From an uncultured Acidobacteriota bacterium (lineage in GTDB: Bacteria; Acidobacteriota; Thermoanaerobaculia; UBA5066; Gp7-AA6): a DNA stretch of 64,000 nt. Positions 2,501 to 62,173 of this stretch are shown piece by piece. How positions within the stretch are numbered: the first letter of the stretch is position 1; every line of letters starts with the position of its first letter. The notes under the pieces are model-generated. The model was not told the origin of the DNA, searched no databases, and was given only the letters and a program-made list of their open reading frames with translations. A program made the translations under genes and the position numbers. The stretch is from assembly GCA_963815865.1 (NCBI GenBank), contig CAWFIK010000003.1, positions 283,771 to 347,770 of the forward strand, in the 5' to 3' direction.

Positions 2501-3252
2501 AGGAACATCTCCGCGAGCTCGTCCAGGCGCCGGATCACCGGGTCCCCGGGACAGCAGGAGCGCCGTCCATTGGAATCTTCGCCGGCGAGCAGGACGTGGC
2601 GCATTCCGACAGTCCGGGCGCCGATCATGTCCCGCTCGAGGGAATCCCCGATGAAGACCGATTTCCCGGGCTCGACGGAGAGCTGCGAAAGCGCCGCGTC
2701 GAAGATCGCCCGATCGGGCTTGCGGCAGCCGACGATGGCAGAGTCCACCTCGGCGGAGAGGAGCTCATGGATCCCGATCTCCCGGCAGACGGCCGTGAGA
2801 TTCCCGTAGAAGTTCGAAACGATAGCGAGCTTGTAGCGCGGAGCGAGTCTGCGGAGAAGTCCGGCGTTGCGTGAGAGGCTCTCGAGGCAGCCGGCGCTGA
2901 AGCGCGCCGCGACGCGGGCGGCCACGGCTTCGCCGCCCGTCCCGAGACCGGCCGCGACCCCGCGGGCGAGCCGCCCGACCGTCTCCGCGAAGGGCAGCGA
3001 CGCGGGAACGGACCCTTCGATCGCGTCGTCCGCCGCGAAGAACGCCCGATCGAAGCGTTCGCGCGGGATCTCTTCCTCCTCCCGCCAGAGCCGGAAGAAT
3101 CGTTCCCGCCAGGCGATCCCCGGGCCGTCGAGCGTTCCGCCGAAGTCGAACAGCAGGGCGGTGATGCCAGATTTGTGATTTGTGATTTGTGATTTGTGAT
3201 TTGGGGATCCCGAGTCCCGAGTCCCGAGTCCCGAGTCCCGAGGTGTGGTCAC
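2497..3252 (-). CDS. HAD-superfamily hydrolase/phosphatase with a repeat-encoded N-terminal leader
   Basis: HAD motif I ITALLFDFGGTLD plus downstream RLAPRYKLAIVSNF and FIGDSLERDMIGA motifs. The only in-frame canonical start is GTG at 3250-3252, overlapping the upstream stop TGA at 3249-3251 (GTGA). This puts the heptamer arrays at 3171-3245 in frame, encoding TTPRDSGLGTRDSGSPNHKSQITNHKSG. Confidence 0.6.
   Translation of the reverse strand: MTTPRDSGLGTRDSGSPNHKSQITNHKSGITALLFDFGGTLDGPGIAWRERFFRLWREEEEIPRERFDRAFFAADDAIEGSVPASLPFAETVGRLARGVAAGLGTGGEAVAARVAARFSAGCLESLSRNAGLLRRLAPRYKLAIVSNFYGNLTAVCREIGIHELLSAEVDSAIVGCRKPDRAIFDAALSQLSVEPGKSVFIGDSLERDMIGARTVGMRHVLLAGEDSNGRRSCCPGDPVIRRLDELAEMFL
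3171..3245. repeat. Two adjacent heptamer tandem arrays: (ATTTGTG)x4 plus ATTTGGG at 3171-3205, then GATCC, then (CGAGTCC)x4 plus CGAGGTG at 3211-3245
   Basis: Directly visible. On the minus (coding) strand they read (GGGACTC)n then (CACAAAT)n. They fill the whole space between the hpnL-like stop and HAD motif I. Confidence 0.95.
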
Positions 3253-7473: not shown

Positions 7474-8136
7474 ATGGATGGCTTCAAGATCGGGTCGGAC
7501 GAACACGCCCGTCTCTTCTGCGGGACGTTCGTCGAGACACACCGTCCGTTCCGGGCAGAGGACATCGTCTGGCCGGAGCTCGACCCGGAGAGCCTGGCGA
7601 GGTTGAAGGGCCTTCCCGTCTGGGACGAGGCGGCGCGGACCGAGGCCGCCACGGCGGTCAAGGTACAGACTCTCGGGGACACCGAGACGGACCCCGTGCT
7701 CAAGGAGGCGATCGCCCTCCAGGGGTACGAAGAGGGGCGCCATGCGGAGATCATCGCCCTCTTGACGAAGGCATACGGGATCGAGACGGCACCGTTTGGC
7801 GAGCCGGAGAAGCCGAAGAACCCGACGTGGACGTTCCTGCGCACCGGCTACGGCGAGTGCCTCGATTCCTTCTTCGCGTTCGGCCTCTTCGACATCGGGC
7901 GCAAAAGCGAGTTCTTCCACAAGGACCTGATCGCGATCTTCGACCAGATCATGCAGGAGGAGGCGCGGCACATCCTTTTCATCGTGAACTGGGCGGCCTA
8001 CCTGCGCGCCCGAAAGCCGTTCCCGCTGCGGCCAGTGTTCGACGCGCGGCGCGCCTGGAACATCGTTGCCCAGGCCTTCGACCGCGTGAAGGGCGCGATG
8101 CAGATGGCGGGCGGCGGCAACGGGAGACGGCGGTGA
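7474..8136 (+). CDS. Ferritin-like diiron-carboxylate protein (two E-x-x-H motifs)
   Basis: ATG at 7474 is preceded by GAGGAGG. The 220-aa product MDGFKIGSDEHARLF...YEEGRHAEIIALL...IMQEEARHILFIVNWAAY carries two EExxH motifs about 80 aa apart. It is transcribed divergently from dxs. Confidence 0.6.
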   Translation: MDGFKIGSDEHARLFCGTFVETHRPFRAEDIVWPELDPESLARLKGLPVWDEAARTEAATAVKVQTLGDTETDPVLKEAIALQGYEEGRHAEIIALLTKAYGIETAPFGEPEKPKNPTWTFLRTGYGECLDSFFAFGLFDIGRKSEFFHKDLIAIFDQIMQEEARHILFIVNWAAYLRARKPFPLRPVFDARRAWNIVAQAFDRVKGAMQMAGGGNGRRR

Positions 8137-8173
8137 GAAGAATGAGAAGAAGGGGACACAAGACGGATTCACG

Positions 8174-8380
8174 TTGAAGAGCCACTCGGCCTTCGGCGAC
8201 TTCAAACTGCGCTCGTTCCTGGAGCTCTGCCTGGCCGAGAACGAGCGGCGCCTCTCGCCATACGACCCGCGGCTCCTCCGCCCGACGCTCGTCCCCGGGT
8301 TCGTGCGGCGCTTCGTGAAGGTCTTGCCGAAGTCCAGGCCGGGACGCGGGACTCGGGACGCGGGACTCGAGCCAAGGTGA
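8174..8380 (+). CDS. Uncertain 68-aa ORF (TTG start) whose C-terminus is encoded by the (GGGACGC/GGGACTC) heptamer array
   Basis: Translation MKSHSAFGDFKLRSFLELCLAENERRLSPYDPRLLRPTLVPGFVRRFVKVLPKSRPGRGTRDAGLEPR* has a plausible composition. The repeat-derived tail PGRGTRDAGLE matches the repeat-derived HAD leader PRDSGLGTRDSGS. It is in the same frame as the downstream 8423 gene, separated by TGA at 8378-8380. Confidence 0.2.
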   Translation: MKSHSAFGDFKLRSFLELCLAENERRLSPYDPRLLRPTLVPGFVRRFVKVLPKSRPGRGTRDAGLEPR

Positions 8381-8420
8381 TCGTTCCGAGTTCCGAGTTC
8401 CGAGTCCCGGGTCCCGACTA
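8341..8420. repeat. Two heptamer arrays: (GGGACGC/GGGACTC)x4 at 8341-8368, a 17-nt spacer, then (CCGAGTT/CCGAGTC/CCGGGTC)x5 at 8386-8420, ending 2 nt before ATG 8423
   Basis: Directly visible. The first array uses the same GGGACTC unit as 3211-3245, in the same orientation relative to the downstream gene. Confidence 0.95.
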
Positions 8421-8422
8421 GG

Positions 8423-9586
8423 ATGGGAAACGACCTCGTCAGCGCCTGCGTTTTCTGCGCGGGCCTGCTTCTGGGGCTCGAGCTGCCGCCCCCCCCGGGC
8501 TACCACGCCGAGGTCGGGTTCTCCTATGCGACCGCGGCCCGGCGCTATCGGACGCCGGACGGGCTCGACGATGTTTCGGACGTCACGCCCAAGTTCGCCC
8601 TGGTCGGTTTCGGCTGGAATCGTCCGCCGGCCGCGGGACTGGGGGCCGGGACTCCCGAGGCGGAGTGGCGGGCGCGCGTCGCGCTCGGGCCCTCCCACGA
8701 CGAGCAGTCACAGGCCCCGCTGGCGATCACGAACACCAACGCGACCGGGACGGGGCGCTTCGAGAACTACGCGGTCGTTCTGCGTTACCCGTTCTCCTCG
8801 CGCGATTCCGTCGAGGTGGGTCTGACGCGGCGCTATCACTCCTCGACCGACGAGATCGACATCGGCCAGGAGCGCTTCGTGCTCTCCGAAACGCGAGTGC
8901 TGGCGGCCGAGCGAGTGGACGCCGGGATCGGGTGGAGGCACCGCTGGCCCGGGTTCGAAGCCGCGCTGTCGGAGCGCTACGTCCGGCCCAACGGCAGCAA
9001 CGCGACGGCCGGCGCCTTCCACATCACCGAGGGGCACCTCTGGGGCGGGACGGCGGAGGCGCGGGCGCGTTGGAAGGGATGGACGTTTTCCGGCTCCGCC
9101 GAATACGCCAGCGGCTCGCTCTCCGTCCACGAGGAGAACCAGCCGAACTTCGCGCCGCGCAACTTCGACGCGAAGGCGACGCTCGAGACCTACCGGCTGG
9201 GAGTCGGTCTCCTCCTCGGAAAGAGGGACTTTTTCCTGCAGGCGGCCTACGATCGTTCCCGCCTTCCGTTCGTGTCCCTCGCGGTCCTCGGCAGCGAGAT
9301 CGCGGCGTTCGAGTCGGGCTACCACCCGGATGCCCGCGCGCGCGTCGTCCTCTGGGACCTGACGGCGCGGCACGAGTTCGCGCCCGGCTTCCGCTTCAAG
9401 CTGCTCCTGCGCACCTCCCGCGGGGACGAGACGCTGACTCTGACGGATGCCTCCGGCGTCCTCCCTTCGCGACAGCTCGACGTCAAGCGGTCGGGCGTTT
9501 TCGGCGCCGGCCTCTCCCGCGCCCTCGGCAGCCCGGAGGCGACCCTCGGCTTCGGAGTGGAGCTTTCGCTGCCCGTCGCGAAGTGA
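8423..9586 (+). CDS. Hypothetical secreted/outer-membrane beta-barrel-like protein
   Basis: The 387-aa product has an N-terminal hydrophobic segment MGNDLVSACVFCAGLLLGLELPPPPG. It has alternating amphipathic, Gly/Tyr/Arg-rich beta-strand-like composition, and strong third-position GC periodicity. Confidence 0.5.
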   Translation: MGNDLVSACVFCAGLLLGLELPPPPGYHAEVGFSYATAARRYRTPDGLDDVSDVTPKFALVGFGWNRPPAAGLGAGTPEAEWRARVALGPSHDEQSQAPLAITNTNATGTGRFENYAVVLRYPFSSRDSVEVGLTRRYHSSTDEIDIGQERFVLSETRVLAAERVDAGIGWRHRWPGFEAALSERYVRPNGSNATAGAFHITEGHLWGGTAEARARWKGWTFSGSAEYASGSLSVHEENQPNFAPRNFDAKATLETYRLGVGLLLGKRDFFLQAAYDRSRLPFVSLAVLGSEIAAFESGYHPDARARVVLWDLTARHEFAPGFRFKLLLRTSRGDETLTLTDASGVLPSRQLDVKRSGVFGAGLSRALGSPEATLGFGVELSLPVAK

Positions 9587-11216: not shown

Positions 11217-13051
11217 GCACGCGTCCCCCACCGGCCGTGCCGCCGCTCGGCCAGGACGCCCTGCCCCGCTTCGCACTCTCCGTGCGACAGCAGGCGGCTG
11301 CGTGGGCCCTCGAGGAGGACGGTCGCCCCGGGCAGCATCAGGTCCCGGCCGCCGATGACGAAGACGCGATCGGAGGATTCCCAGCTCTTCAGAAACGCGT
11401 CCGGCGTCAGGAACACCTCCGGGGCGTCGCCGCGCCGGTAGCCGAAGAGCAGCTCCGGCCCCGGGCCCCCGAGGACCTGCGTCGCGAGGCCCGTATAGAA
11501 CGTGATCCCGCATGCCTCCTCGTAGTCTTCCGCCACGACGAGGCGGGATCCGGGCGCCCAATCCCGGTCGACGATCGCGGCGGCCGCGCGCTGGGATCGG
11601 TCTTCCCCGACCAGCCGCATCCCTCCGTCCGCCAGGCCGAGGACGAGCACGGCGCCGCCGACCCAGAGCGCGAAGGCGCGGAGGACCCGGGCCCGCCGGA
11701 TTAACAGGAAAGACAGGCCCCCGAGGATGAGGAGGACGATTGGAAAGGGGCGGGCCATCCGGAGAAGCTCGGTCCCGAACACCATGGCGGCTCCCGGATG
11801 GGACGCGAAATACTCCCGGTAGTAGCCGTCGAGATTGGAAACCAGCTCCGTCAGGCCGGCCGGGCCCGCTCGGGCCGAGAAGAAGACGATCGGCGCGAGG
11901 GCGAGCCCGATCCCGCCCACGATCAGGCTCGGCGTGAGAAAGGCGGGCGCGCGTCGGCTGCCGGTCATGAACCGGCGCCAGCCGGAGCCCAGGATCACGG
12001 CCAGCGCCGGAAAGGCGGGGAGCGCGTAGTACTCCATCCGGGAGCCGGTCAGCGTGAAGAAGAGCACGATCCCGGCCACCCAGATCCACGCGAGCGCCAG
12101 TCTCCGGCTCCACCGTCGCCCGCGCCGGGGAAGAGCGCTCGGAAGAAACAGGAACCAGGGGAAGATCCAGAGGAGCGTCGCAATCCAGAAATCTCTGATC
12201 GACAGCGGCGTGAAGTTCACGGGGTACCGCTGCCCCAGGAATCGGGCGAACTGCTCGTGGCCGAAGTAGAACGGGAGAAAGGCCGGGTCCTTCCACGCCA
12301 GGAGGACGTGCCAGGGGAGGAAGACGATCCCGACGATCGCGGCGCCGAGCCACGGGCGGAGCCTCCGGACGAAGTCCCGGCCGCCCACGAACAGCGCGTA
12401 CGCGGCGGCCGTCGCGAACGGAAAGAGGAGCCCGATCAATCCCTTCGTCAGGCCCGCGAGCGAAGCTCCCAGGAAGAACATCACCGGGCCGGCGAGACTC
12501 TCCCGCCTTCGGAGGGCCTTCGCCAGGCCGAGCAGCGAGACGCTCAGCCAGAAGACGAGCAGAGTGTCGGTGAAGAGAAAGCGGCCGAACAGGAACGGCC
12601 CGAGAGACGTCGCGTAGATGAGCGCGGCCAGCGGAGCGGTCCCGCTCCCGACGAGCTCCAGCGCCAGGAGAAAGGTCACGACGACCGTCCCGACGTAGGC
12701 CACCGCGCTCGGGAGCCGGGAGGCGAACTCCGTGAATCCGAGGAGCCGATAGGAGGCCGCGACGCACCAGTAGGTCAGCGGCGGCTTCTCGTAGTAACGC
12801 GCGTGGTTGAAGTGAGGCTGGATCCAGTCGCCGCTCTCCAGCATCTCCCGCGCGACGAGCGCGTAGCGTGCCTCGGCCGGGCTGATCAGCGGGCGCGCGC
12901 CGAGGCCGGAGAAGGCGAGCACCGAGGCGAGAAGCCCGCACCCGGCGAGGGAGACGAAGAGCGTGGGCCGCCGTCCCCGGGACGGCCCGTCGCGCGGAGA
13001 GGAATCTGTGCGACCCTCTGAGACGAGGTGGTTGATGCCTAACGGTATCAC
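11144..13051 (-). CDS. GT-C family 39 glycosyltransferase (ArnT/PMT-like; polyprenyl-phosphate-sugar dependent)
   Basis: A 635-aa polytopic membrane protein, GTG start at 13051, with the diagnostic block ESGDWIQPHFNHARYYEKPPLTYW. The 3' end overlaps the hpnJ 3' end convergently by about 70 nt. Confidence 0.8.
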   Translation of the reverse strand: MIPLGINHLVSEGRTDSSPRDGPSRGRRPTLFVSLAGCGLLASVLAFSGLGARPLISPAEARYALVAREMLESGDWIQPHFNHARYYEKPPLTYWCVAASYRLLGFTEFASRLPSAVAYVGTVVVTFLLALELVGSGTAPLAALIYATSLGPFLFGRFLFTDTLLVFWLSVSLLGLAKALRRRESLAGPVMFFLGASLAGLTKGLIGLLFPFATAAAYALFVGGRDFVRRLRPWLGAAIVGIVFLPWHVLLAWKDPAFLPFYFGHEQFARFLGQRYPVNFTPLSIRDFWIATLLWIFPWFLFLPSALPRRGRRWSRRLALAWIWVAGIVLFFTLTGSRMEYYALPAFPALAVILGSGWRRFMTGSRRAPAFLTPSLIVGGIGLALAPIVFFSARAGPAGLTELVSNLDGYYREYFASHPGAAMVFGTELLRMARPFPIVLLILGGLSFLLIRRARVLRAFALWVGGAVLVLGLADGGMRLVGEDRSQRAAAAIVDRDWAPGSRLVVAEDYEEACGITFYTGLATQVLGGPGPELLFGYRRGDAPEVFLTPDAFLKSWESSDRVFVIGGRDLMLPGATVLLEGPRSRLLSHGECEAGQGVLAERRHGRWGTRAYPVAPTGWTSAAEPEREAAPFSE

Positions 13052-36129: not shown

Positions 36130-37812
36130 CTACTGCTGCGCGGCGCGCCGTCCCCACGCGAGAAAGGCCGCCGCGGAGAGGGCCGCGAGGAGAACGCCGT
36201 ATGCGGCGGCGGCGCCCGTGTCCTGCATCCGGAGCGAGGAGAGAATCTCGATGGAGATCGGGCGCGTCTCGAACGTGTAGAGGACGATCGAGACGACGAA
36301 GTCTCCGAGCGACGTCAGGAACGCGAGGGAAGCTCCGGCGAGGAGGGCGGGCGCGAGAAGCGGGATCGTGATCCGAACCAGCCGCCTCCAGCGACGCGCG
36401 CCGAGAGAGGCTCCCGCTTCGTCCAGAGAGCGGTCGAGCTGCCGGAGTCCGGCGAAGGCGGCGCGCCCGGTCAGCGGGAGATTCCGGACGAGGTAGCCGA
36501 GCGGCAGGATCGCTGCCGTGCCGACGAGCACGAAGCGTCCCGCCCAGGGAGCGTGGCGGGAGAACGTCGCCGCAAGCGCCACCGCGAAGACGGTCCCGGG
36601 GAGCGCCCACGGCACGGCGACGAGCGCTTCGAGCGCTCCGCGCCAGCGGGTTCGCCGCGCCACCGCGAGCCACGCCGCGAAGAACCCCAGCAGGAGCGCG
36701 ATCGCGGTCGAGACGACGGCCATCCAGAGTGAGTTGACGATCGGCCGCAGGCGCTCCGTCTGCGAGAAGACCGACGCCCAGTTGGTCAAGTTCAGGACCG
36801 GCGGCCACGCCTCGATCGTCCACGTCCCCGGCGGCACGAAGGAGACGAGCAGGAGCGTGGCGTGCGGGAGCAGAAGGAATGCCGCGAGCAGCCACGCGAG
36901 GAGAGCCACCAGCGTCCCGCGGCGCAGCCGGCGTCGCGAAGGGGGCGTGCCCCGGATCGCCCCGGCCACCTCGCGGCGTTTCTCCGCGCGCTGAAGGAAG
37001 TAGAGGCCGATGAGAGCGAGCGCCGCGAGCGTCGTCGTCTCGACCATCGCCATCTCGTTATCGCCGTTCAAGCGCGAGAAGACGATCTGCGTCGTCATGA
37101 CGCGAAACGTCCCGCCGAAGAGGTACGGCGCCGAAAAGGAGGAGAGGGAAGTCATGAACGTCAGCAGCGCGCCGCCGGCGAGCGCGGGCGCGAGCAACGG
37201 CAGGGTCACCCGGGCGAGGACGCGTCCCGGCCCCGCCCCGAGGGCCGCGGCCGCCTCGAGGTATGCGGCGTCCAGGCGGGCGAGCCCGGCGCGCGTGAAG
37301 AGATAGAAGTAGACGTACATCGAATAGGCGTGCACGAGCAGGACGGCGCCCGGGCCGGAGAGGCGCCAGGGCGGCTCCTTCGAGCCCGTCACCGCCTGGA
37401 GCGCGCGCGCGAAGAATCCGCTTTCTCCGTAGAGAAAGAGGAACGCGACGACGCCGACGAGCGGAGGGAGGACGACCGGCAGCGCGATCAAGGTTCCCAG
37501 CACGCGGCGCCCCGGGAAGTCCGCGCGCTCGAAGAGGAACGCGAGCGGGATGCCGATCGAGGCCGCGAGGACGACCGTGGCGAGCGAGATCCAGAGACTC
37601 GCCCAGAGCGCCTGCCACTCATCGGGCCGGCGAAAAAACTCCGCGAAGTAGCGCAGGCTCCACCCCGGCGCCGCGAGCGCTTCCCGAAACGTCAACAGAA
37701 GCGGATAACAAACCAGCCACGCAAGAAGTACGACGAGGAGTCCCGCCGCCAGACCTCCCTCTCCCCCCGGGAGAGGGCCGGGGTGAGGGCGAGACCGGCG
37801 CCAGGGCATCAA
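36130..37812 (-). CDS. ABC transporter permease with two fused permease domains (Fe(III)/thiamine FbpB-type)
   Basis: The 560-aa product has two EAA-like loops (EAAAALGAGPGRVLARVTLPLL; DEAGASLGARRWRRLVRITIPLL) and 12 predicted TM segments. Confidence 0.85.
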   Translation of the reverse strand: MMPWRRSRPHPGPLPGGEGGLAAGLLVVLLAWLVCYPLLLTFREALAAPGWSLRYFAEFFRRPDEWQALWASLWISLATVVLAASIGIPLAFLFERADFPGRRVLGTLIALPVVLPPLVGVVAFLFLYGESGFFARALQAVTGSKEPPWRLSGPGAVLLVHAYSMYVYFYLFTRAGLARLDAAYLEAAAALGAGPGRVLARVTLPLLAPALAGGALLTFMTSLSSFSAPYLFGGTFRVMTTQIVFSRLNGDNEMAMVETTTLAALALIGLYFLQRAEKRREVAGAIRGTPPSRRRLRRGTLVALLAWLLAAFLLLPHATLLLVSFVPPGTWTIEAWPPVLNLTNWASVFSQTERLRPIVNSLWMAVVSTAIALLLGFFAAWLAVARRTRWRGALEALVAVPWALPGTVFAVALAATFSRHAPWAGRFVLVGTAAILPLGYLVRNLPLTGRAAFAGLRQLDRSLDEAGASLGARRWRRLVRITIPLLAPALLAGASLAFLTSLGDFVVSIVLYTFETRPISIEILSSLRMQDTGAAAAYGVLLAALSAAAFLAWGRRAAQQ

Positions 37813-38903
37813 GAGTTCGCCCTCGGAAACGCCCGAGGCGCCGGCCCCTCCCGATCCGGCGCGGCAGAGACCTTCTCCCCCGGACGCGCCGAGTCGGAGG
37901 CCGCCTGAACCTCGACGCTCTCTCCGTTCTCGAGCGCCACGTCGAGCAGCGCCACGCGCCCCGCGTACCGCCGCGCCGTCACCTCGCCCGCGATCGAATC
38001 CGGCTCCGCCGCGCTCACGAGTCTCAATCCCTCCGGCCGAACGACGAGGTCAACTGCCGCCCCGTCCCGGAGGCCCTCGCCTCCCGTAGCGCGCCAGACC
38101 GGACCCGCCGCGAGGCGCACGCCTCCCGCCGTCCAGATTCCCGCGAGAACGCTCGACCGCCCGATGAACGTGGCGACGAAGCGGCTCGCCGGTTCCTCGT
38201 AGAGGGCTTCCGGCGGTCCGACCTGCTCCAGTCGCCCCGCGTTGATGACGGCCACGCGGTCGCCCAGGTCGAACGCCTCCTCCTGCTCGTGGGTGACGAA
38301 GAGCGTCGTGATTCCGACCTTCCGGATGATCCGCTTCAGCTCCCGCCGCGTGCGCTCGCGCAGGGTCGGATCGAGATTGGAGAACGGCTCGTCAAGCAGG
38401 AGGACGCGCGGCTGAGGCGCGAGCGCGCGCGCGACCGCGACGCGCTGCTGCTGACCTCCGGAAATCTCCCCGATCCTCCGCCGCTCGAAGCCCGCCAACT
38501 CCACCGCCGCGAGGGTCTCCGCGACGCGGCGCTCCACGTCCGCCCGCGGCATCCCCTGAGCCTCCAGGCCGAACGCGATGTTCTCCCCGACGCTCATGTG
38601 CGGAAAGAGCGCGTAGTGCTGGAACACCATCCCGAACCGCCGGCGCTCCGGGGGGAGCCGCGTCACGTCCTCCTCCTCGACGCGCACGGTTCCGGAGTCG
38701 GGCGTCTCGAACCCGGCGACCAGGCGCAGCACGGTCGTCTTGCCGCTCCCCGACGGCCCGAGCAGCGCCACGATCTCGCTTCGCGAGACCGACAGGGACA
38801 GGTCGGCTGTTACATGCAGATTGCCGAAACGCTTCTCGAGGCGATCGAGGTGAAGGAAGTCGTGAGTTGTGAACTGTGAGTTGTGAGTCGGGTCTCTTAT
38901 CAC
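37809..38903 (-). CDS. ABC transporter ATP-binding protein (FbpC/PotA-like) with a repeat-encoded N-terminal leader
   Basis: Walker A LLGPSGSGKTT, signature ISGGQQQRVAVARAL, Walker B VLLLDEPFSNLD, and a C-terminal TOBE-like domain. The only canonical in-frame start is GTG at 38901-38903, overlapping the substrate-binding-protein gene stop (GTGA). This places the (CACAACT) repeats in frame as IRDPTHNSQFTTHDF. Confidence 0.85.
   Translation of the reverse strand: MIRDPTHNSQFTTHDFLHLDRLEKRFGNLHVTADLSLSVSRSEIVALLGPSGSGKTTVLRLVAGFETPDSGTVRVEEEDVTRLPPERRRFGMVFQHYALFPHMSVGENIAFGLEAQGMPRADVERRVAETLAAVELAGFERRRIGEISGGQQQRVAVARALAPQPRVLLLDEPFSNLDPTLRERTRRELKRIIRKVGITTLFVTHEQEEAFDLGDRVAVINAGRLEQVGPPEALYEEPASRFVATFIGRSSVLAGIWTAGGVRLAAGPVWRATGGEGLRDGAAVDLVVRPEGLRLVSAAEPDSIAGEVTARRYAGRVALLDVALENGESVEVQAASDSARPGEKVSAAPDREGPAPRAFPRANS
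38862..38889. repeat. Heptamer tandem array (GTGAGTT/GTGAACT)x4; on the coding minus strand it reads (AACTCAC)n
   Basis: Directly visible. It lies between the substrate-binding-protein stop (38900) and the ABC ATPase conserved N-terminus. Confidence 0.95.
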
Positions 38904-39952
38904 TTCCCTTTGCCTCTTACTTCTCGGTCCCACTTCGCCATCCAGGCCTGGCCTTCCCGCTCGAGCTGATCCCAGTCCATCTTCGCGGGCTTCATTTTCT
39001 TCTCGACGTCGCGAGCCCACTCGGGCAAGTTCCCCTCGGGAAGGTCGGTGCGCGCGGGAAGGCGGTAGGCGCTGCGCGCGGCCGCGAGCTGCGCCTCGGG
39101 GCTGCCGATCCATTCGAGAAGCTCCCGCGCCTCGCGCGGATGCTTCGCGCCGGCGACGAGGCCGGCGGCATCGTCGATGACCGGAGTGCCGCTCGAGGGG
39201 AAGACGTAGGCGAGGTCCTTGCTTCGCTGCATCTCGAGCAGGACGTCGGGCAGGTCCCAGACCGTGACGAGCCCCTCGCGCCTCGCGATCTTCTCGACGA
39301 GGACGGAGGCGTTCATCACGTACTCCTTCGTTTGCGCGTCCAGCCGCGAGAGCCACTGGAAGCCGCGATCCGTCGAGCCCGTGTCGGCGAGCGACCGCTC
39401 GAGGATCATCCCGAAGATCGCTCGCATCGTGCCGGAGGCGATCGGATACCGGATGAGGATCTTCCCCTTCCAGCGCGGATCGAGCAGGTCCTCCCAGTCG
39501 CGCGGAGCCTCCCCCGAGGCGACGGCGCCCGAGTTGTAGACGAGGACGGCGGGAGTCCTGTAGACGCCGAAGTAGAGGTCCTGCGCCTGCCGGCTCTCCG
39601 GCGGGATCGCCGCCGACCAGGACGGCCGGTAAGGCTGCAGGAGGCCTTCGCGCGCGCCGCGTGCGAAGATCGTGTTCGGACCGCCGAACCAGAGGTCCGC
39701 CTGCGGATTCGCCTTCTCGGAGCGAACCCGGTCGTAAACCTCCTGCGATCCCATGTCGAGCCACCGCACGTCCACCTCCGGATGCTTCGCCTCGTACGTC
39801 TTCTCCACCAGGCCGAGCAGGTCTCTTCCGTGCGGCGAGTAGAGAACGATCGGCGTCCGGGCGTCTCTGTGGCAGCCGGCCGGAAGGACGAGGAGAGGCG
39901 TCAGCCAGCAGAGCGTGACAACTCTCCGGCGGCTCATGGTCCGGCGGAGCAT
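38900..39952 (-). CDS. ABC transporter periplasmic substrate-binding lipoprotein (Fe(III)/FbpA-like family)
   Basis: MLRRTMSRRRVVTLCWLTPLLVLPAGC (lipobox), then the SBP fold IVLYSPHG...DLWFGGP.... The start is ATG at 39952 or 39937. Confidence 0.8.
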   Translation of the reverse strand: MLRRTMSRRRVVTLCWLTPLLVLPAGCHRDARTPIVLYSPHGRDLLGLVEKTYEAKHPEVDVRWLDMGSQEVYDRVRSEKANPQADLWFGGPNTIFARGAREGLLQPYRPSWSAAIPPESRQAQDLYFGVYRTPAVLVYNSGAVASGEAPRDWEDLLDPRWKGKILIRYPIASGTMRAIFGMILERSLADTGSTDRGFQWLSRLDAQTKEYVMNASVLVEKIARREGLVTVWDLPDVLLEMQRSKDLAYVFPSSGTPVIDDAAGLVAGAKHPREARELLEWIGSPEAQLAAARSAYRLPARTDLPEGNLPEWARDVEKKMKPAKMDWDQLEREGQAWMAKWDREVRGKGK

Positions 39953-60739: not shown

Positions 60740-62068
60740 ATGAAGTCGCCGATGATGACGTTCGATCGCCGGGCTTTTGTGGAATGGTTCGACAGGAACC
60801 GCAGGCGCTCGCGGGAGTTGTTCGACACTGTCGTTCCCGAGGCCTACGAAGCGCGCCCGATCCCTTTGCGCAATCCGATCTGTTTCTACGAGGGGCATCT
60901 GCCGGCGTTCAACGTGAACACGCTGGTCAAGAGGGGACTCCGGGAGCGCGGAATCGATGCCGGCTACGAGGTCCTGTTCGAGCGCGGTATCGACCCGGAA
61001 GACGAGTCGGCGGTCGGCCGCGCCCCGTTCCGCTGGCCGTCTCGAGAGCAGATCCAGTCGTACGGAGATCGCGCCGACCGGGCGATCCGGGAGGCGTTGC
61101 TCGAAAAGGACGTCCTCCGCGACGACCAACCTGTGCTCCGCGGCGGCCTTGCCGTGTACACGGTGCTCGAGCACGAGCCGATGCACCAGGAGACGCTGCG
61201 TTACATGTGGCACCGCCTTCCGTTCGACAGGAAGATCCGTCCCGCCTCCGAGCCGCCGTTGCTGGCCGGCAACGGTTCGCCGCCGCCGAGAACCGTCCGG
61301 GTCCCGGCCGGCGTGGCGACGCTCGGCGCCGCGCGCGATCGTGTGCCCTTCGGCTGGGACAACGAATTTCCCGAGCACCGCGTCGAAGTCGCCGGTTTCG
61401 AGATCGACGTCTTCAACGTCACAAATGGCGAGTTCCTGAAGTTCGTCGAGGCGGGGGGGTACGGCAAGCGCGAGCTCTGGGACGAGGAGGGATGGGAGTG
61501 GCGTTCGCGAGGCGGCGTCGAGCACCCGACTTTCTGGGAGCGCGCGGATGGAACCTGGTCCTGGCGCGGAATGTACGAGGCAATTCCGCTCCCCGCGGCC
61601 TGGCCCGTATACGTCTCGCACGCGGAGGCGGAGGCCTACGCCCGCTGGAAGGGGAAACGTCTGCCGACCGAAGCGGAGTTTCACCGCGCCGCCTACGGGA
61701 CGCCGGGCGGCGAGGAGCTCTCCTATCCGTGGGGGGAAGAGCCGCCCGACGAGACCCGGGGGAATTTCGACTTCCGCCGCTCCGACCCGGTGCCGGTCGG
61801 CTCGTTTCCTGCGGGCGCGAGCGCGTGGGGAGTCCTCGACCTCGTCGGCAATGGCTGGGAATGGACTTCGACGGTGTTCAGCGGTTTTCCCGGATTCGAG
61901 CCGATGGCCTCCTACCCCGTCTATTCCACGGACTTCTTCGACGGAAAACACTGGGTCATGAAGGGCGCGTCCCCGGCCACCGCGAAAGAGCTGCTGCGGA
62001 GAAGCTTTCGGAATTGGTTCCGCGGGAACTATCCGTATGTGTATGCGGGGTTCCGGTGTGCCAAGTGA
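60739..62068 (+). CDS. egtB: Ergothioneine biosynthesis sulfoxide synthase (DinB_2 + FGE-sulfatase domains)
   Basis: MKSPMMTFDRRAFVEWFDRNRRRSRELF...FYEGHLPAF...HEPMHQETL (DinB-like iron-binding), then the FGE domain VTNGEFLKFV...VSHAEAEAYARWKGKRLPTEAEF...GNGWEWT. The ATG shares CATG with the divergent peptidase start. Confidence 0.85.
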
Positions 62069-62173
62069 TCGGGTGATCGGAAGATCGGGTGATCGGGTGA
62101 TCGACCGAAGCCTGAGCGCGTCTGCCCCATTTCAATCACCCGATCACCAATCACCCGATCACCAGATTGGCGA
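62065..62173. repeat. Octamer array (GTGATCGG)x5 at 62065-62104 and an inverted, degenerate copy (CGATCACC/AATCACCC)x4 at 62143-62173, about 38 nt apart. A potential long imperfect hairpin spanning the egtB stop and egtD start.
   Basis: Directly visible. Each unit contains GATC. The second array is the reverse complement of the first. Confidence 0.9.

Follow-up and report, generated by a model that had tools for sequence, protein, structure and literature searches.

The subject of this analysis is a short repeat at a gene junction in a 64,000-nucleotide (nt) stretch of DNA from an uncultured Acidobacteriota bacterium (contig CAWFIK010000003.1, positions 283,771 to 347,770; hereafter the window). 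A three-gene ATP-binding cassette (ABC) transporter operon on the minus strand comprises the gene of an iron(III)-type periplasmic solute-binding lipoprotein (SBP; 38900..39952, 350 aa from MLRRTMSRRR, Pfam SBP_bac_6/8/1/11, best protein-search matches at 85-91% identity, placing the window in Thermoanaerobaculia), the open reading frame (ORF) of an FbpC-like ABC ATPase (37809..38903, 364 aa from GTG 38903, Pfam ABC_tran + TOBE_2), and the gene of an ABC permease (36130..37812, BPD_transp_1) whose start overlaps the ATPase stop in a TTGATG context. Between the SBP stop and the conserved N-terminus of the ATPase lies a degenerate heptamer array, ACTCACA/ACTCACA/GTTCACA/ACTCACG (38861..38888, minus strand), that is C/A-rich and stop-free, has the character of a 3' arm, and almost certainly belongs by homology to a family of repeat elements at gene junctions of this lineage.

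The SBP-ATPase junction

On the minus strand the junction reads GTGA-TAAGAGACCCG-ACTCACA-ACTCACA-GTTCACA-ACTCACG-AC-TTC CTT CAC CTC GAT. The SBP stop codon TGA (38900..38902, ending ...REVRGKGK*) is overlapped as GTGA by the GTG at 38901..38903, which is the nearest in-frame canonical start of the ATPase. The spacer ATAAGAGACCCG (38889..38900) separates the SBP stop from the array, whose units on the coding strand are ACTCACA at 38888-38882, ACTCACA at 38881-38875, GTTCACA at 38874-38868 and ACTCACG at 38867-38861; the conserved ATPase N-terminus FLHLDRLEKRFG (38823..38858, minus strand; FLHLDRLEK) follows, with its TTC (Phe) codon at 38858. A purine run resembling a Shine-Dalgarno (SD) sequence, AAGAGG (38913..38918, minus strand), is situated 9 nt 5' of the GTG within conserved SBP C-terminal codons, and the purine-rich SBP 3' end is also conserved in orthologs. 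Translation from GTG 38903 gives VIRDPTHNSQFTTHDFLHLDRLEKRFG...GPSGSGKT, with VIRDPTHNSQFTTHDFLHLDRLEK as its N-terminal part and THNSQFTTH as the in-frame reading of the array. Letters and translation thus agree with the original prediction, made by a model from the sequence alone, that four heptamers are read in frame directly before the LHLDRLEKRFG N-terminus of an FbpC-like ATPase with a Walker A motif, with the caveat that the array is imperfect: only two contiguous units are perfect, and Tandem Repeats Finder reports 38858-38888 with period 7, 4.4 copies and 79% matches.

The same prediction held that the ATPase has no canonical start except GTG 38903. This GTG, 45 nt before the Phe codon, is indeed the nearest in-frame start and does form the GTGA overlap; there is no ATG, GTG or TTG in the ATPase frame between the array and the Phe codon, and the two other frames of the window junction are without starts. 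However, the ATPase frame is open further upstream and contains additional GTGs 75 and 162 nt before the Phe codon, within the SBP gene, so that the claim holds for the nearest start and not for exclusivity.

The array has a G+C content of 43% as against 69% for the window. Low-GC arrays of period 7 number 2 in the window, compared with 0.02 expected from first-order Markov simulations, and those of any G+C content number 6 compared with 0.85 expected from the same simulations.

Orthologous junctions

Sequence 5' of the conserved ATPase N-terminus was extracted from 4 loci identified by protein identity, 80 loci from reference genomes and 4 further close relatives. In the array-free orthologs (about 60, more distant) the ATPase starts with ATG, occasionally GTG or TTG, 2-4 codons before F/Y-L-x-L-D, and a GAGATAA/GATAAT-like motif usually occurs 8-16 nt 5' of the ATG. 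In an array-bearing Thermoanaerobaculia subclade, made up of the window and the loci L001 (= L007), L002 (= L006), L004, L005, L009, L015 and L030, the usual ATG is lost or pushed upstream, and the heptamer array abuts the Phe codon with no start after it. The arrays at this position are (CACAACT)n in L002 and L004 and (CACAAAT)n in L001, L005, L015 and L030, whereas L009 has a degenerate AATCT-rich tract partnered with a 5' array of an 8-mer (GGATTGAA). Arrays of the orthologs have 3.7-5.4 units of differing unit families, and the target array aligns with their perfect (CACAACT)n and (CACAAAT)n arrays. The resemblance previously noted between the CACAACT unit here and a CACAAAT unit at a second junction of the window, before a HAD gene, is borne out, and ATPase orthologs carry either unit at the same position.

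Most array-bearing orthologs also have an inverted-complement partner upstream, in the form (GTGAATT/GTGATTK)n-loop-(CACAAYT/CACAAAT)n. In L002 the pair is (GTGAATT/GCGAATT)x4...95 nt...(ATTCACA ACTCACA ACTCACA ATTCGCA), and in L001, L005 and L015 it is (GTGATTK)x4-5...20-30 nt...(AAATCAC)x4.5-5.4. These paired forms fold as long hairpins, with z values of -4.1 to -8.7 against dinucleotide shuffles and loops of about 22-24 nt in L015 and L001. The window junction is without a stem-loop (z +1.42, with 188 of 200 shuffles folding at least as well), and no significant structure came from folding the target array together with the 3' coding part of the SBP gene.

Alignment of five sequences equates the window array with the 3' arms of the orthologs and shows the 5' arm and loop to be missing in the window. 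The segment AGAGACCCGA, which covers spacer sequence and extends into the array by a single base, matches caAGAGACCCGATG, which stands directly 5' of the loop ATG in L002/L006; the ATG itself is absent in the window after AGAGACCCGA. The difference between L002 and the window is a clean multi-base deletion and not a homopolymer error, and the window ATPase shares 87% identity with its orthologs and retains every motif. The operon of three genes is likewise intact.

Other features of these junctions vary among relatives. A CitMHS-family transporter gene lies between the SBP and ATPase genes in L001 (11202-12299), L003 (11123-), L205 and L206, and is absent from this position in the window, L002, L004 and L005; array elements occur at both CitMHS junctions in L001, on the SBP side only in L206, and as a remnant of about two units in L205. 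In L030, (GTGATTT)n after the SBP stop (8106-8138) and (AAATCAC)n before the ATPase (9415-9450) are 1.3 kb apart. A GC-rich palindrome unrelated to the heptamer arrays is found at the ATPase-start junction in other lineages (L026, L075, L084), and the ATPase-start junction is a general hotspot for palindromic repeats. In the window a GC-rich palindrome, CCCTCTCCCGGGGGGAGAGGG, is located within the permease N-terminus (about 37753-37785, minus strand), where it is translated as ...PHPGPLPGGEGG...; a palindrome like it is the one at the ATPase start in L026, L075 and L084, and another precedes the permease in L005, followed on its 3' side by a heptamer array (ATCCAAR)x4 at 12275-12302.

Probable translation through the array

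The upstream walk from the Phe codon to the first stop was made in three frames for the eight array-bearing orthologs. A canonical start precedes the first stop in 8/8 cases in the ATPase frame, 0/8 in frame +1 and 3/8 in frame +2 (Fisher's exact test for 8/8 in the ATPase frame against 3/16 in the other frames, p = 2.2e-4). ATG accounts for 4 of the 8 in-frame upstream starts; the in-frame TTG of L005 has AGGAG 10 nt before it, and the loop ATG of L002 is preceded by a TTGAGATAG motif common to array-free orthologs, e.g. L065 and L046. The 3' arm units (CACAAMT) are stop-free in every frame, while three or more (GTGANNN) units bring TGA into all three frames. These patterns indicate that in the array-bearing subclade the ATPase probably initiates 5' of the 3' arm and reads through the array, and that in the window it is most likely GTG 38903 that fills the upstream-start role. 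The GTGA overlap arises because the SBP ends in a conserved ...AAG TGA, an end that several orthologs share, and the junction displays the sequence features of stop/start-overlap coupling, namely GTGA between co-directional adjacent genes and a frame open to the conserved domain.

SD 5-mers precede only 14 of the 54 called genes of L001-L004, and SD-independent initiation is thus common in the clade. Several genes of L001-L004 have a -10-like hexamer 6-9 nt 5' of the ATG (e.g. ...TAGATTctaagaATG, and for the SBP ...TATTCTtcgcgcgATG); the sequences suggest that leaderless transcripts may be common in the clade. Automated calls of the same ATPase give 319 aa in L001 (12493; truncated past the N-terminal strand), 362 aa in L002 (11130; from the loop ATG) and 378 aa in L004 (1367; from a far-upstream GTG), and the heptamer arrays evidently mislead start prediction.

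Paired heptamer elements across the lineage

A period-7/8 scan of 1.4 Mb yielded 44 arrays, which group into about 32 elements; an array-centred analysis of flanking frames placed almost all of these elements at stop/start junctions. Array density is 6.55 per 100 kb in the subclade of the window and 0.33 per 100 kb in more distant relatives; this roughly 20-fold enrichment, together with the placement of the arrays, agrees with the earlier view that their recurrence at unrelated operons is not a coincidence. Unit sequences vary widely between loci (GTGAATT, GTGATTK, ATTGATG, GATTGAW, TAGTCGG, ATTGATCC, AGTTCTC, TCCCGAG, CGGGACK, GTGATCGG), and it is the architecture that recurs: the upstream stop is in, or a few nt from, the first unit of a G/T-rich 5' arm, and the 3' arm abuts or contains the next start, e.g. 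the CitMHS ATG in L001, L003, L008 and L029. In nearly all pairs the order of arms is stop-rich 5' and stop-free 3', with one opposite case (L003 4500-4592). Since this arm order reads identically from either strand, it is compatible with any orientation of the neighboring genes.

The window holds four such junctions. At the LPG_synthase_TM to HAD junction (3170..3252, minus strand) a GTGA overlap (3252-3249) is followed by (CTCGGGA)5 at 3242-3208 and (AAATCAC) in about 5 copies at 3203-3170; the HAD domain itself begins at residue 30, both perfect arrays share its reading frame, and the other frames are without starts. Here the two arrays stand back to back and are mutually non-complementary (z -1.1). 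The GTGA and in-frame arrays of this junction confirm the description of the ATPase junction as a second one of the same architecture. Paired arrays (CGGGACK)4 / (GTYCCGR)5 at 8340..8417 (plus strand) form a very stable hairpin (z -7.2, with a minimum free energy of -65 kcal/mol), and 6 nt separate its end from the ATG at 8423. The CGGGACT unit of the HAD junction recurs there at 8340-8369 on the opposite strand, the preceding ORF apparently continues across the 5' arm (...PGRGTRDAGLEPR*) and has its stop in the loop, and neither of the two flanking proteins has a Pfam match. At the EgtB to EgtD junction (62062..62167, plus strand) the arms are 8-mers, (GTGATCGG)5 / (ATCACCCG)4, and the hairpin has a z of -4.6; the stop of EgtB (FGE-sulfatase/DinB_2) is in the first GTGA, and both arms leave the frame of EgtD (Methyltransf_33) open: TGA would fall in this frame at a single unit, which is the mutated one, AAGATCGG. 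In-frame GTGs occur 108, 93 and 69 nt 5' of the EgtD IGDF (62166).

Turnover of the elements

Comparison of L205, L206 and L207, from genomes 92-94% identical to L001, reveals differences at corresponding junctions. L207 keeps a (GATTGAW)/(AATCGTC) pair after the SBP, L205 retains about two units there, and L206 has another unit family (GTGAATT/CACAAYT) at the SBP junction; the CitMHS to ATPase junction carries a full pair and lacks an ATG in L001, but in L205 and L206 it is array-free and has a normal ATG (MSSYLTL...). L002 and L006, on the other hand, are 2.3% diverged over 11 kb (239 mismatches, 16 gaps) and yet identical over the 186-nt junction, both arrays included. The elements are gained, lost or unit-swapped on a between-species timescale and are not hypermutable.

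A metagenome scan for at least 3 CACAAMT units found at least 120 loci, and the contigs among the matches listed range from 21 to 69% G+C, which makes this unit a widespread heptamer simple sequence repeat (SSR). On high-GC contigs among these matches, a partner array on the 5' side, (GTGATTK)n or (GTGAGTT)n, is again frequent. If the next gene is on the same strand, two patterns are seen among the matches listed: a start within about 30 nt of the array end, for which L101 uses CACAAATG, or no start after the array and an ORF that opens upstream (L113, L164, L175). In the low-GC contig L098, ATG-AGT-(ACAAATC)n leads into a glycosyltransferase-like N-terminus. No orthologous ATPase junction was found among the listed matches of these at least 120 loci. 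The only near-identical pair among the matches listed, L152 (8212-8282) and L192 (337-400), comes from an unrelated organism; the contigs are 95-97% identical with about 21% G+C, and their (AATTCAC)n(AAATCAC)n array differs by one unit (10.1 and 9.1 copies).

Strand asymmetry and functional tests

Fold stability of the antisense strand exceeds that of the sense strand in 12/14 elements, by a mean of 7.2 kcal/mol (Wilcoxon p = 0.002), and the asymmetry holds for about 8 of 9 independent unit families. Mismatches between the arms on the sense strand are of the A.C type, e.g. AACTCAC for AATTCAC. Selection for a hairpin in the mRNA would predict a sense fold at least as stable as the antisense fold and G.U pairs at mismatches; the reverse is seen, which argues against selection for an mRNA stem, and this candidate function was rejected on the opposite sign of the test. 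The data suggest instead a pressure that keeps the sense 3' arm C/A-rich and G-poor. 

The target tract is itself C/A-rich with three ACA motifs. Tracts that are CA- or ACA-rich, G-poor and unstructured enhance initiation in E. coli and Salmonella, either as standby sites upstream of starts or from a position just downstream of them (PMC5934652; PMC3879156), and the same effect is attributed to Martin-Farmer & Janssen 1999 as cited in PMC9031893. The target resembles these enhancers as a G-poor, unstructured tract (z +1.42) next to a start, although the enhancers were shown with (CA)n or ACA in those bacteria and not with heptamer arrays or in Acidobacteriota; by this analogy a permissive or mildly helpful role of the target tract in initiation is plausible.

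Other functions were considered and set aside. A search of Rfam gave no match in the whole 64-kb window, and neither a promoter-like nor a minus-strand terminator-like site above chance was found at the junction, so that an intrinsic terminator and a known RNA family or riboswitch were both rejected. The iron transporter context and the 7-1-7 heptamers of Fur sites brought up a Fur box, which was rejected because of the poor match to TGATAAT and because the arrays also occur at non-iron genes and include GC-rich units.

Origin of the array and alternative explanations

The array is best explained as the decayed 3' arm of a lineage-specific long simple-sequence-repeat (LSSR) element of intercistronic junctions. 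Complete elements are inverted pairs: a G/T-rich heptamer with TGA is repeated as the 5' arm, a loop follows, and a C/A-rich heptamer free of stops is repeated as the 3' arm. The 5' arm begins at or contains the upstream stop, and the 3' arm lies against, includes or extends beyond the downstream start. Comparison with the orthologs shows that at the SBP-ATPase junction the 3' arm came between the start codon and the conserved Phe; in the window genome the ancestral ATG would then have been lost along with the loop and the 5' arm in a deletion, as the alignment implies. Only variants with an upstream canonical start in frame through the stop-free arm would have survived. Termination-reinitiation at GTGA, 9 nt downstream of the SD-like AAGAGG, would accordingly be the most likely way in which the ATPase is made, and the protein would carry about 15 extra low-complexity residues, V/M-IRDPTHNSQFTTHD, before FLHLDRLEK. 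The array would be a tolerated remnant and not a switch, a G-poor, unstructured, ACA-containing tract that literature precedent suggests is permissive and possibly helpful for initiation in an mRNA of 69% G+C. Taken as a whole, this chain of a degenerate 3' arm, an ATPase start at GTG 38903 by stop/start coupling and a repeat-encoded N-terminal extension is judged the probable explanation, with appreciable room for doubt.

Several points weigh against this explanation. The start at GTG 38903 is a prediction from the sequence, and the ATPase may instead start at GTG 38933 or at a non-canonical codon; the eight array-bearing orthologs are not fully independent, as unit families are shared among them; the polarity of the event, a deleted 5' arm as opposed to one that was never present, comes from a five-sequence alignment and not from a rooted phylogeny; and the benefit of a G-poor tract would hold by analogy only. 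Metagenome-assembled genomes can also mis-call repeat lengths, but the 8/8 in-frame result argues against such errors here. For the same reason a mis-assembled repeat, or else a decaying and unexpressed ATPase gene, might be suspected behind a degenerate array when the relatives compared are metagenome assemblies prone to repeat-length mis-calls. This is hardly credible given an ORF intact over 364 codons with all motifs in an intact operon, its identity to orthologs, the clean multi-base deletion relative to L002, and the same architecture seen independently at the HAD junction. Phase variation, one of the two mechanisms offered in the original prediction, would have 7-nt slippage between start and conserved domain switch the ATPase and HAD genes ON and OFF. 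The unit length is not a multiple of 3 and the array lies inside the ORF between GTG 38903 and Phe 38858, 3' of the nearest canonical start; moreover, heptamer SSRs do act in this way elsewhere, as in the Haemophilus influenzae hmw (ATCTTTC)n (PMC12721329), and in the L152/L192 pair of low-GC contigs the lengths of a related array are exactly one unit apart. However, the target, with two contiguous perfect units and 79% matches, is not a long perfect tract prone to slippage, the L002/L006 junctions and arrays are identical despite 2.3% divergence over 11 kb, all 8 orthologs as well as HAD are in the ON frame, and the genes affected are cytoplasmic and housekeeping (ABC ATPase, HAD hydrolase, EgtD) rather than determinants of surface structures. 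Rehm et al. came to the same negative conclusion for the heptamers of Xanthomonas (PMC4692102), and phase variation at this locus is very improbable.

If the ATPase instead started at a non-canonical codon at the 3' end of the array, or from a leaderless transcript of an internal promoter, the array would be an untranslated leader. Its end does coincide with the exact position of the ATG in array-free orthologs, which have GATAAT-like motifs 8-13 nt 5' of that ATG, and most genes of the clade are without SD, several having a -10-like hexamer 6-9 nt before the ATG. Yet between the array and Phe the window has neither ATG, GTG or TTG nor an in-frame CTG, ATT or ATC, a promoter-like site was not found at the junction, leaderless initiation normally needs a 5'-terminal AUG (PMC9031893), and this reading gives no account of the in-frame upstream starts found in 8/8 orthologs; an untranslated leader is thus improbable. 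The other mechanism originally offered, repeat-mediated translational coupling, can be phrased as a dedicated device in which a ribosome terminating in the stop-rich 5' arm unzips the stem and exposes the loop start together with a C/A-rich landing pad in the 3' arm, the window copy being a constitutively open derivative. Stops in or at the 5' arm upstream, starts in the loop or at the 3' arm, stable stems with loops of about 22-24 nt (L015, L001) that would occlude the 30S site, the strong bias of arm order from stop-rich 5' to stop-free 3', and the precedent of CA-tract standby sites are all in keeping with such a device. But in 12/14 elements the sense hairpin is weaker than its antisense version (p = 0.002), genomes of 92-94% identity differ by gain and loss of elements, array-free relatives work with a plain ATG, the bias of arm order can also be explained by survivorship where spacers are tiny, and the target has no stem (z +1.42). 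Coupling as the designed function of the repeat is not supported and remains unproven, and a dedicated device is unlikely, though it keeps some credit for the paired forms. An extension of this idea, that paired arrays are a modular, sequence-independent coupling and rheostat device of the lineage in which stem length (copy number) would set the exposure of a downstream start held within the loop ahead of a G-free landing pad, and unpaired copies would be locked open, is a speculation to which we give rather little weight. The remnant explanation, a surviving 3' arm of a hairpin element, is preferred to these.

Relation to known repeats and junctions

Overlapping stops and starts (ATGA, GTGA, TGATG) are a means of coupling in operons. 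The SBP-ATPase junction resembles them in its 4-nt GTGA between co-directional genes, as does the overlapping ATPase-permease junction, but differs in the approximately 15 non-conserved repeat codons between the coupled start and the conserved protein and in that the overlap appears to be secondary, following loss of the ancestral ATG. Intercistronic palindromes of the repetitive extragenic palindrome/bacterial interspersed mosaic element (REP/BIME) type are found in ABC-transporter operons, e.g. at E. coli malE-malF, and have a conserved sequence and dedicated RAYT (REP-associated tyrosine) transposases. The present elements are likewise dispersed and palindromic and stand just after the binding-protein gene of ABC operons, whereas here the architecture alone is conserved, the sense fold is not favored and the target copy is stemless.

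Among the long SSRs of bacteria, heptamers are the most over-represented class (Mrazek 2007, summarised in PMC4679880 and PMC4692102), and the elements described here show an excess of tandem 7-nt units, many loci at gene termini, and copy and unit variation between relatives, as is characteristic of LSSRs. The GGGAATC arrays of Xanthomonas are mostly of about 4 units, are 89-93% intergenic, and include 70-75 convergent pairs per genome that could fold as stem-loops (PMC4692102); they vary from one related species to another, and no function is known for them (Rehm et al. 2015, PMC4692102). Shared with these and other heptameric LSSRs are the 7-nt units in about 4-5 copies, a high-GC genome, intergenic location near ORF ends, convergent stem-loop pairs, the turnover of length and sequence between related genomes and the lack of a link to surface genes. 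Unlike them, the Acidobacteriota elements use many units per genome, mostly AT-rich and not G-rich (without G-quadruplex potential), their arms overlap stops and starts in a polarised order, and N-terminal extensions encoded by the 3' arm probably occur repeatedly.

The TAACTGA direct repeats of Beggiatoaceae, which occur also in cyanobacteria and Bacteroidetes, lie a few nt from start codons where SD motifs are rare (MacGregor 2015, PMC4679880). In one orientation they provide stops in all frames and overlap the upstream stop; the opposite orientation is translatable and is found at the very ends of proteins, e.g. at the start of a corrinoid ABC permease (PMC4679880). Start-proximal heptamers with all-frame stops one way and translatability the other way are common to both systems, and L003 carries an AACTGAW array; but Beggiatoaceae have one conserved unit that is hardly ever inverted, with one indirect repeat reported, whereas here the units vary and inverted pairs dominate. 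In H. influenzae hmw, (ATCTTTC)n is one arm of a hairpin in the 5' untranslated region that is cleaved by RNase III, and the tract is truly phase-variable (Rapun-Araiz et al. 2025, PMC12721329). The likeness is that of a heptamer array as one arm of a long mRNA hairpin 5' of a gene; the non-repeat G-rich other arm, the at least 11 perfect units, the control of an adhesin and the phase variability of hmw have no counterpart here.

Paired heptamer arrays are therefore already described in Xanthomonas and start-proximal ones in Beggiatoaceae. What is added to the known heptamer class is the diversity of AT-rich units within one genome, the overlap with stops and starts, the polarised order of arms, the repeated displacement of starts, probably accompanied by reading of the 3' arm as protein, and the asymmetry between strands.

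Implications

Start-site annotation in this lineage needs repeat-aware rules, gene callers being inconsistent at such junctions. The elements extend paired heptamer arrays from Xanthomonas to Acidobacteriota, and bring with them a clear rule of arm order and an asymmetry between strands, for both of which any model of function has to account. The SBP-ATPase junction offers an example of SSR elements reshaping gene starts in compact high-GC operons, in which the start is displaced and the gene survives by way of an upstream in-frame start.

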